From Lytechinus pictus (taxonomy: Eukaryota): 64,000 bases of DNA. The notes under the pieces were generated by a model. That model did not search any database and was not told the origin of the DNA. It was given only the letters and a program-made list of their open reading frames with translations. Positions 61,694 through 64,000 of this stretch are shown one piece after another. Positions within the stretch are counted from its first letter, which is position 1; each line of letters starts with the position of its first letter. The DNA is taken from the NCBI RefSeq assembly GCF_037042905.1, contig NC_087250.1, positions 15,936,001-16,000,000 on the forward strand, written 5' to 3'. The position numbers and the translations under genes are program-made.

Positions 61694-62097
61694 GTGACAG
61701 TGACATCGTTCAAATCTTTCTGGAATCGACGATGTACACTATTATTTATATAGGATCCGTTGCGAATCGATTATCGGATAAATTGTGAGACTGGTATGAA
61801 TGTTTAAACCCATAAAATCTTGACCAAAGTTCAAAATATTGTTTTGACGACTAAAATCTAAATTTCCAGTTTTTTTTTTTAATTTAGCTTTCCTGACGGA
61901 ATAAAAGCGAATAAATTCAAAACCGTTATGATATCGTCGTCGCCTGCGAGTTGATTGGACGTCACTCCAACCACAAGGCGTACAGAAAAGCAGAATTGTT
62001 GTCTAAATTTACTCTTTGGAAATTTCATATTTAATCCAAAATACAGTTTCTTCAAATCGCAGCGTAGACGGATCGTGTAGTGTGCGGCTGGCTTTAA

Positions 62098-62883
62098 AGG
62101 GATGCTTTGTGCTGAAGATATTTATATCTAAATATTGAATAAAGCAAAAATTCACAGAGCAAAATGCATAAAATTTAATCAAAATTGGATAACAATAATG
62201 AAGTGATTGAATTTTAAAGTAAAGCAATATTTTATGAAAACAGTTATATGCGCGTCGTCATAAATATTCATTAGGTAGGCTAATGATATCATATCCACAC
62301 TTTCCTTTTTCTTCTGTTGTTACATGAAATCATAATTGTTTCATTTTTTCATACATGTTAATATGATGTGTCTCCGTTATGATGAAATAAGTTGCAGCAA
62401 TAAATAACTAATGCACTTAATCAGTTGACAATCCGATTATTTTAGTTCTTGGTAGAAAATATTTGAATTAACCTTATTTCATATAATAAAATACAAAAGA
62501 ACAAGCGGGTATATGACATCATCTGGGCGTTGTGGCGTGAGCCTGTAATCCAAGCTGTGGGGAAGTTACAAATTGATGCAGAGGTTCGATCCCTGGTCAC
62601 GTCTTTTGGTTGGGGACGTTAAATGTCGGTCCCAGACGTAAGTAATCATATCTGATTGATACACGTCTGACAAAAATCACACACACACACACACACTCAT
62701 CTGTCCAACTAATGTATACTCATGAAGACATGCCTAGAACTGTTTCACCGGAATAATGCAAATCTTTAACATTCAATAACTTCGTTGTATGTAACCCGAT
62801 TTTGATGAAATTTTCAGCATTTTGCTCTTAGAATTCTACTCTATCTATTGAGATACAAAATATCTTCATCCTGGAGCTTCCCT
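62098..62883. mobile_element. Kolobok-like element carrying a SINE insertion
   Basis: TTAA|AGGGATGCT ... AGCTTCCCT|TTAA; body related to K1. Confidence 0.75.
62525..62696 (+). mobile_element. Short SINE-like retroposon with 7SL/Alu-like head, B box and (CA)n tail
   Basis: TSD TCATCT (62519-62524, 62697-62702); head GGGCGTTGTGGCGTGAGCCTGTAATCCAAGCT; GGTTCGATCCC at 62583-62593. Confidence 0.75.
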
Positions 62884-62937
62884 TTAATGTGACAGTTATA
62901 TCATGCTACGATCATACAAGCGAAACTGAATCCAGAC

Positions 62938-63157
62938 CAGTGGCGTACCTAGGATTTTCCACAGGGGGGGGCAAAACCGTCCGCCCAAAAATTTGACAAG
63001 CAAAAAAAAAAAAAATAAATAAAAAAAAAAAAAAAGGTCTTCAAGCTCGTCAGGGGGGGGGGGGGGCAAAGATACGTTTTTGCATGGGTTGTGACTCGTC
63101 AGGGGGGGCAGAGTGCCCCCCCTGCCCCCCCCCCCCCCCCCCGTAGGTACGCTAGTG
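62938..63157. mobile_element. hAT-like MITE
   Basis: CAGTGGCGTACCTA / TAGGTACGCTAGTG; 8-bp TSD ATCCAGAC. Confidence 0.85.
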
Positions 63158-63406
63158 ATCCAGACTGACCAGCGATTGAGTTACTACCAACATGATCAAT
63201 GACATACTCGGGGACATACTATCGGTCGATTTGGAATCGCTTTCTTTTGGTGTGACTTTCCATTAGCATTACAGATCAAACAAAGAAAAGCTCATCTTAA
63301 TCATAATCTGGAAACCACTATCTAAATGTCTTTTATATATACATGTCATTCAATATGAAATATAGATTTTCTCTCTCAACAGAGTGGATACTTTTATAAT
63401 CATTAA

Positions 63407-63986
63407 AGGACAAGTCCACCCCAAAAAAATGTTGATTTGAATAAATAGAGAAAAATCAAACTAGCATAACACTGAAAATTTCATCGAAATCGGATGTAAA
63501 ATGAGAAAGTTATGGTATTTTAAAGTTTCGCTATTTTTCACAAAACAGTGATATGCACAACTCAGTGATGATGTCCATCACTCACTATTTCTTTTGTTTT
63601 TTATTGTTTGAATTATACAATATTTGATTTTTTACAAATTTGACAATAAGGACCCACTTGACTAAACCATAGAGTATTAAACAATGCTAATTCCACATGT
63701 TCAGGGAGGAATTAATCATTGTTTCACTTGACAATGAGGAGAAAATTATAATATTTCATATATCAAATAATAAAATACAAAAGGAATAGTGAGTGGATGA
63801 CGTCATCAGTCTCTCATTTGCATACTGGCCACGATGTGCATATAACTGTTTTGTGAAATTAAGTGAAACTTTAAAATGTCATAACTTTCTTATTTTACAT
63901 CCGATTTTGATGAAATTTTCAGTGTTATGCTTGTTGGATTTTTCTCTTTTTATTCAAACCAACTTTTTGTTGGGTGGACATGTCCT
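63407..63986. mobile_element. Kolobok-like K1 element, complete
   Basis: TTAA|AGGACAAGTCCACCC ... GGGTGGACATGTCCT|TTAA. Confidence 0.85.
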
Positions 63987-64000
63987 TTAAGAGTAAGGTT

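Follow-up and report, generated by a model that had tools for sequence, protein, structure and literature searches.

The window, i.e., the whole 64-kb stretch of Lytechinus pictus DNA analysed here, contains a 172-bp SINE inserted into a MITE-like repeat. The insert runs on the plus strand from a head with close similarity to the 5' end of 7SL RNA, through a Deu-domain-like core, to a tail of CA repeats. In window coordinates, the features of the locus are the following:

62098-62883, no strand assigned: host MITE-like repeat hit by the SINE, with TTAA at 62094-62097 and 62884-62887 and long inverted ends
62519-62524, no strand assigned: left copy of the target-site duplication, TCATCT, read directly; single in 11 of 11 empty-site paralogues
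62525-62696, plus strand: SINE insert of 172 bp, read directly from the sequence
62525-62568, plus strand: 7SL-derived head (consensus nt 4-47), which agrees with host 7SL genes at 27/28 positions and comprises helices 3 and 4, the UGUAAU turn, and the 3' strand of helix 2
62533-62543, plus strand: A-box-like stretch inherited from 7SL; TGGCGTGAGCC in the window copy, TGCGCC in the consensus
62569-62595, plus strand: linker and imperfect hairpin, with the B box GGTTCGATCCC (62583-62593) in the loop; homologous to the pre-core segment of L117 and L154 (see below)
62596-62639, plus strand: Deu-domain-like core GTCACGTCTTT.GG.TGG.GACGTTAAA.GTCGGTCCCAGACGT, common to L152-L154 and to contigs of the sequencing runs X15 and X16 (see below)
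62633-62669, plus strand: 3' stem-loop of CAGACGT, a 23-nt loop with an inner stem, and ACGTCTG; kept in relatives
62670-62696, plus strand: A-rich stretch and (CA)9 tail, read directly; the length of the CA run differs among copies
62697-62702, no strand assigned: right copy of the target-site duplication, TCATCT, from direct reading and the empty-site comparison

Without the SINE, the host repeat measures about 615 bp (62098-62883 minus the insert). For the repeat that makes up the left flank of the insert, there are 1,855 first-look candidates genome-wide, 40 of which were scored. All 11 host-repeat paralogues that we fetched run uninterrupted through ...GACATCATCAGCCCACC..., without the insert and with the hexamer present once. 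The eleven empty paralogous sites and the duplicated hexamer together indicate a clean insertion with a 6-bp target-site duplication, as the original prediction had read it. No second copy of the SINE was found within the 64-kb window. A Pfam Bindin match of 236.7 bits in the genome identifies the host as an echinoderm of the sea urchin type. The prediction had also noted a (CA)n end, a Pol III B box, and the TGTA motif for SRP9/14 binding, all of which we recovered in the window copy, the last as TGTAAT at 62544-62549. The GGGAC/GTCCC hairpin that it described is likewise present in the window copy but is not a trait of the family, whose consensus has GTGAC.

MITE-like repeats lie at 62098-62883 and 63400-63990, with TTAA flanks, inverted ends of about 190-240 bp, and more than 1,800 first-look candidates; they are possibly of the piggyBac or Kolobok type. 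Matches to miRNA models at 63049-63146 were sub-threshold, fell on both strands, and were rejected as a low-complexity artefact of a hairpin between a G-run and a C-run.

The family to which the window copy belongs starts 3 nt further 5', with ACT before GGGCG in 20 of 27 other copies, so the window copy is 5'-truncated by 3 nt. The intact family unit comprises about 166 nt plus the tail. Compared with the majority consensus of 43 sampled copies, the window copy shows seven differences over 147 positions (nt 4-150) and three more in the A-rich stretch preceding the tail, corresponding to a divergence of about 5%. A C>T change creates a TTTT run at 62604-62607, which would presumably stop Pol III in this copy. 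The head is mutated too, with ACT missing and a C>A change in helix 3, and a cmscan of the window copy itself with the Metazoa_SRP model (RF00017) gave no match at E<=10.

A DNA search of the species' own genome with the insert returned 1,486 first-look candidates; 49 were scored, most of them 94-95% identical over nt 1-155. Pattern searches of the genome yielded 708 matches for an exact head 31-mer that includes an A absent from the 7SL genes, 829 for an exact tail 29-mer, 1,387 for a tail 22-mer with up to 2 mismatches, and 1,639 for a core 27-mer with up to 3 mismatches, against 0 for the reversed-pattern control of each head, tail, and core pattern. The copies are dispersed over all large contigs, and 27 sampled copies have unrelated flanks, target-site duplications of about 4-12 bp, and CA runs of differing length. 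The insert is thus a member of a multi-copy family, and the hallmarks of retroposition are all seen: variable target-site duplications, a variable simple-repeat tail, 5' truncations, and an empty site. In the terms of SINEBase, as defined in the consulted part of PMC3531059, the family is a short (<1 kb) interspersed, non-tandem repeat with a few tandem arrays besides, and its 708-1,639 pattern matches place it among SINEs by copy number.

Nineteen of the 43 sampled copies equal the majority consensus exactly, in a sample chosen by the exact head and hence biased to young copies. The youngest and commonest sampled subfamily, accounting for 39 of 104 full-length copies, has lost two bases (AC) of the helix-4 loop. 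Old copies, 67-90% identical to the consensus, retain the 7SL head and carry the tail variant GTCTGTAAAAAC(T/C)C. The coexistence of such diverged, headed copies with identical ones indicates a lineage that is old as well as recently active.

The 5' truncations are concentrated around the 5' edge of the Deu-like core, within nt 65-82 of the consensus (62586-62603 in the window). Among all 48 exact-tail matches on contig C1, six of the eight truncated copies have their 5' break there, where about one would be expected under even breaks; stalling of the reverse transcriptase at the hairpin or cleavage of the RNA are possible causes. Some of the spread occurred at the DNA level, as observed in head-to-tail arrays of six units (L006:810-1823) and four units (L004:950-1655), in a SINE dimer with identical flanks at four loci (L039, L041, L042, and L043), and in the loci L117/L118 and L132-L134, the flanks of which are common on both sides.

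To place the head, we compared it with the 7SL genes of the same genome. A genome search with RF00017 identified seven full-length host 7SL genes at 272-283 bits and, in addition, 18 sub-threshold matches at 32-35 bits; all ten of the latter that were fetched are SINE copies. The head of the window copy agrees with six host 7SL genes at 27 of 28 positions. Intact copies begin at 7SL +1 (ACT), are identical over nt 1-30 (30/30) to the 7SL gene at locus L037, and agree with it overall in 42 of 46-47 columns; against the commoner host 7SL gene type, the family head agrees in 38 of 41 columns. ACT (nt 1-3) and AGT (nt 43-45) are common to the SINE and the L037 gene, so that helix 2 stays paired, whereas the other six 7SL genes have ACC and GGT at these places. 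By cmscan, RF00017 scored three consensus-like copies at 31.1-32.7 bits (E 8e-6 to 2e-5) and the variant at L117 at 29.9 bits (E 5e-6 to 2e-5 overall), with a fit that covers helices 2, 3, and 4 and the UGUAAU turn. A profile of the family, searched by nhmmer, in turn matches every one of the seven 7SL genes, with alignments that run from profile position 1 to between 36 and 44 (E 4e-6 to 2e-5). The agreement of the window copy, the closer agreement of the intact copies, and the RF00017 scores of about 30-33 bits support a derivation of the head from the host's own 7SL, as the original prediction proposed; in the comparison that it suggested with the species' own SRP RNA, host 7SL fits and a tRNA does not.

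Past nt 47, we found no similarity to 7SL: the local scores of SINE nt 48 to the end against 7SL nt 46 to the end are 13-15, compared with 15.2 +/- 2.1 for shuffled sequences, 282-464 of 500 of which equal or exceed the score. The pairing by which RF00017 lays the B-box hairpin onto helix 5 contains many non-standard pairs. In the Repbase sense, as given in the consulted sections of PMC7245038, a 7SL-derived head is what characterises SINE1, and the element has one. The trait of retaining both 7SL ends after a central deletion of about 183 nt, which yields a complete fold of the Alu domain and is described for SINE1 in the consulted part of PMC13023118, is absent. Where SINEBase asks for at least 60% identity to tRNA, 5S, or 7SL over at least 60 nt, or else for experimental proof of Pol III transcription (PMC3531059, in the part consulted), the element shares only 45-47 nt with 7SL, at about 90% identity, and is too short in this respect.

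A tRNA contribution was not recognised either. ARAGORN called 0 tRNA genes in the window and five family loci, and the Rfam tRNA models gave no match at E<=1 or E<=10 in the window and the family copies. Instead of the tRNA-recognisable head with A and B boxes that defines SINE2, the element has the B-box consensus only. Of the 7SL/tRNA hybrid originally envisaged, the composite structure stands, since the part after nt 45 is common to SINEs with heads other than 7SL, but the B-box segment is not recognised as tRNA.

The 7SL genes have peculiarities of their own. Six of the seven (L031-L036) contain a B-box-like GGTTCGAGTC followed by GGTGTCTC, about 15-35 nt past the terminator T-run (e.g., L031:1805-1845), and the variant gene at L037 is without this downstream motif. 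We take it that GGTTCGAGTC may be a TFIIIC site, as in yeast U6. Each of three clustered 7SL genes on contig C10 has an old SINE copy about 34 bp upstream of +1 (L031:1293-1466, L035:1297-1467, and L036:1318-1467). These copies split an upstream region that is left intact at L033 and L034.

Within the head, the A-box-like stretch is homologous in position to the A box of 7SL and Alu, as described in the consulted sections of PMC7245038, and we infer that it would act in the promoter. In the family consensus, nt 48-74 form the imperfect hairpin with the B box in its loop, nt 75-118 the core, GTCACGTCTTTCGGATGGTGACGTTAAAGGTCGGTCCCAGACGT, and nt 112-148 the two-step stem-loop. When the core, GTCACG..TCTTTCGGATG..GAC.TTAAA..GGTCCC, is aligned by eye with the Deu part of BivaMD-SINE1, a single printed sequence in the consulted supplement of PMC4824008, about 30 of 44 columns agree. 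ViennaRNA folds consensus nt 62-166 at -27.1 kcal/mol, with z = -1.9 against mononucleotide shuffles; the head folded by itself has an ordinary energy (z = +0.7). At loci L074 and L082, two different MITE-like elements occupy the same SINE position, directly after CCCTGG (nt 74).

The origin of this body can be approached through relatives with other heads. A metagenome scan with a 32-nt core word found three contigs (L152-L154); the first pattern tried had given no match. Aligned with the SINE and L117, L154 shares the segment from TACAAA(C/T)TGA through the core, stem-loop, and tail, and L152 and L153 share the segment from the B box through the same parts. Upstream of the shared segment, the SINE follows 7SL, whereas L152-L154 carry unrelated heads with A-box-like and B-box-like motifs, for which neither ARAGORN nor Rfam calls a tRNA. 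The heads of L153 and L154 had no match in this genome, by a search whose empty answer proves nothing, so that the parent family was not observed alongside the 7SL-headed one. Over about 270 kb of fetched DNA, the profile of the family found only family copies and 7SL genes and no parent SINE.

Further relatives came from sequencing runs. Contigs of X15 (labelled sea urchin, 19 contigs) and X16 (echinoderm metagenome, 12 contigs) match the SINE body at roughly 86-95% and depart from its sequence 5' of SINE nt 62 and nt 75. These contigs, whose RNA label is partly a guess and whose depth is no measure of expression, leave SINE nt 38-61 uncovered and are silent on the presence or absence of 7SL-headed copies. 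The runs X17-X20 contain fewer than 5 sampled words.

One variant, present at L117:186-365 (minus strand) and at L118, occupies a duplicated locus and has no other genome copy within 3 mismatches. It combines a 7SL-exact helix 4 (CCAGCTA) with a B-box hairpin (GATTCAG...CTGAATC) that is 10 nt longer in the alignment, CCCC in the core, and the tail variant of the relatives. Judged by its sequence, this variant is a bridge between the SINE and its relatives without a 7SL head. The breakpoint lies directly after GGAAGT, i.e., 7SL nt 45, the end of the 5' domain. The occurrence of the same body behind non-7SL heads in L152-L154 and in the echinoderm-labelled contigs suggests, as the most likely origin, that an older SINE acquired the 7SL module by a graft directly past 7SL nt 45.

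We also searched for a partner LINE through the shared tail, with exact and near-exact tail patterns, patterns excluding the sequence upstream of the core (206 matches) or upstream of the stem-loop (40), and the older tail variant (56). Such patterns find only near-identical tails. Among the 109 loci fetched (20+14+15+20+20+20), no LINE sharing the SINE tail was found; all are SINE copies or fragments, including truncated copies, MITE-interrupted copies, and copies inside larger duplicated units. L132-L134 were considered as a LINE 3' end and ruled out, since they have common flanks to the left and right and an RT frame is missing within 1.2 kb.

From the head, the body, and the copy numbers, we conclude that the insert is very probably a 5'-truncated, about 5% diverged copy of a dispersed SINE with some 1,400-1,600 copies. 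The head of this SINE (nt 1-45/47) comes from the 5' Alu domain of host 7SL, and the rest is common to SINEs with other heads. Its RNA is a predicted Pol III transcript that is likely bound by SRP9/14 through the head and would be copied into new sites by a LINE.

Other explanations would do without a self-propagating SINE or without retroposition as its main route. Template switching might have joined 7SL RNA to SINE or LINE RNA many times over, each event yielding an independent chimeric retrocopy. An exact start at 7SL +1, as the element has it, is typical of chimeric retrocopies, and template switching is also part of the birth model that we favour. However, the junction of GGAAGT with TACAAA and the extra A in CCAAGCT are constant over hundreds of copies (708 exact head 31-mers and all sampled copies), and this single fixed breakpoint, together with diagnostic changes common within subfamilies, makes repeated independent formation very improbable. 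We attach similarly little weight to a spread chiefly by DNA amplification, in which the family would have multiplied as a satellite or been carried along inside larger repeats. The tandem arrays of 4-6 units (L004 and L006), the dimer with identical flanks at L039 and L041-L043, and the flanks shared on both sides at L117/L118 and L132-L134 speak for it, yet the 27 sampled copies and almost all of the 109 further loci have unrelated flanks. The variable target-site duplications and CA runs, the 5' truncations, and the precise empty site of the window copy argue in the same direction.

The nature of the head and the role of the copies could also be read differently. That the 7SL likeness is due to chance, or that the head is a decayed tRNA of an ordinary tRNA-derived SINE, is hardly credible: despite the perfect B-box consensus and the heads of L152-L154 with their A-box-like and B-box-like motifs, the head matches a host 7SL gene at 30 of 30 positions from +1, the SRP model reports E values around 1e-5, and ARAGORN and Rfam make zero tRNA calls. 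That the copies are or include domesticated small RNA genes with a cellular role, comparable to BC200, for which mobility would be secondary, might be suspected from the old copy about 34 bp upstream of three 7SL genes and from the presence of the element in contigs of runs that may be RNA. Such domestication is highly unlikely in view of more than 1,000 copies that are dispersed, decaying, and without conserved flanks, and of a window copy with an internal TTTT run and head mutations.

For the origin of the SINE with a grafted 7SL head, we propose that a LINE reverse transcriptase, while copying the RNA of an older Deu-type SINE, would have switched template onto 7SL RNA at nt 45 and then run to the 7SL 5' end, which would explain the start at +1. 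The product would possess a hybrid promoter composed of the 7SL A box and, about 40 nt downstream, the B box of the older SINE. If GGTTCGAGTC is the B box of the 7SL genes, a plain 7SL retrocopy would be left without a promoter, and the borrowed B box would make the chimera viable. With such boxes, the element would presumably be transcribed by Pol III. Its head, in which UGUAAU, helix 3, and helix 4 are conserved, would likely bind SRP9/14 and might dock the RNA at ribosomes making the LINE protein, to the advantage of the SINE. The 3' stem-loop and the (CA)n tail would serve as the recognition site for the reverse transcriptase. One of the two helix-4 loop bases lost in the commonest subfamily presumably makes a loop-loop tertiary pair in the human Alu domain, and their loss suggests that tight SRP9/14 binding may not be needed. 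According to the consulted part of Moldovan, Yin and Moran (2025; PMC12199147), assays in HeLa cells show SRP9/14 binding by a 46-nt 5' Alu domain, which Alu requires for its retrotransposition and which can also promote that process. Our best guess, by analogy, is that the sea urchin head would confer the same benefit.

A wider reading, which we put forward tentatively and hold to fall slightly short of probable, is that echinoids have an Alu-like trick of their own. A bare 45-nt 7SL 5' domain would have been grafted by template switching onto a Deu-type SINE, displaced its original head, and driven amplification from copies now >25% diverged to identical ones, the partner being a non-L1 LINE that recognises the stem-loop. 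If true, the 5' Alu domain would be a portable retroposition enhancer for any LINE, perhaps via ribosome docking.

7SL-derived SINEs are rare. The hagfish family is described in the consulted sections of Kojima (2020; PMC7245038) as the first clear case of a SINE1 from beyond Euarchontoglires. In the part consulted, Kosushkin et al. (2026; PMC13023118) state that until their shrew mole family only supraprimates and hagfish were reported to have 7SL-derived SINEs, that every known one retains the two ends of 7SL, and that independent lineages are extremely rare. In their consulted sections, papers on sea urchin and mollusc SINEs name only tRNA-type families (PMC3531059, PMC4758252, PMC4824008, and PMC5804259). 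Petersen et al. (2019; PMC6327564, in the part consulted) reported matches to the "Alu superfamily" in 48 arthropod genomes, using RepeatMasker and an AluJo HMM, without family-level characterisation. These matches are absent from the later specialist lists, as far as the consulted parts of those go, and are a caveat to any claim of a first in an invertebrate. Apart from them, our search, made in full-text literature as distinct from the catalogues Repbase, Dfam, and SINEBase, yielded no 7SL SINE from an invertebrate. A lineage in an invertebrate would add another independent origin of 7SL-derived SINEs and would be the first with the 5' domain only. In a system whose partner would be neither L1 nor dependent on poly(A), it would become testable whether the SRP9/14-binding module aids retroposition generally or is a peculiarity of L1 and Alu, and sea urchin embryos are a tractable system for this question.

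Among known systems, as described in the consulted parts of the papers cited, the closest in design is SINE1-1_EBu (Ebu1-1) of the hagfish Eptatretus burgeri, a 7SL head independent of Alu in a chimera with an older SINE (Kojima, 2020; PMC7245038). It likewise has a non-L1 partner, a LINE-type tail with a short repeat and not poly(A), and a few thousand copies (PMC7245038). Ebu1-1 differs in keeping both 7SL ends with a central deletion and in its RTE-derived parts (PMC7245038), whereas the sea urchin SINE has only nt 1-45/47 of 7SL, a Deu-like body, and an invertebrate host. Alu, B1, FLAM/PB1, and Urop of the shrew mole share the same 7SL 5' domain, with the A-box region, helix 3, the UGUAAU turn, and helix 4, but consist of 7SL sequence only, with the central deletion of about 183 nt, poly(A), and L1 mobilisation (PMC13023118). 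Unlike these Alu-type elements, the sea urchin SINE is without the 7SL 3' part, has acquired its B box from another source, and carries a 3' stem-loop followed by (CA)n. The Tu type II and III SINEs of tree shrews, compared by description only, are said to unite 7SL and tRNA-SINE sequence similarly in one promoter-bearing unit, the left one; however, they descend from SINE1 of mammals and owe their mobility to L1 (PMC13023118, PMC7245038). For the DeuSINE superfamily, to which SINE2-3_SP of the sea urchin belongs, the comparison was made by eye with the Deu part of BivaMD-SINE1, which the core of the element resembles; DeuSINEs possess tRNA or 5S heads (PMC4824008). The engineered human 46-nt 5' Alu domain corresponds to the 45-47-nt sea urchin module in length and position (Moldovan, Yin and Moran, 2025; PMC12199147). 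The human construct is driven by L1 ORF2p and carries a poly(A) tract (PMC12199147). With its head of the 5' domain only, the sea urchin SINE would match, in a natural element, the minimal Alu domain that was delimited in human cells (PMC12199147).
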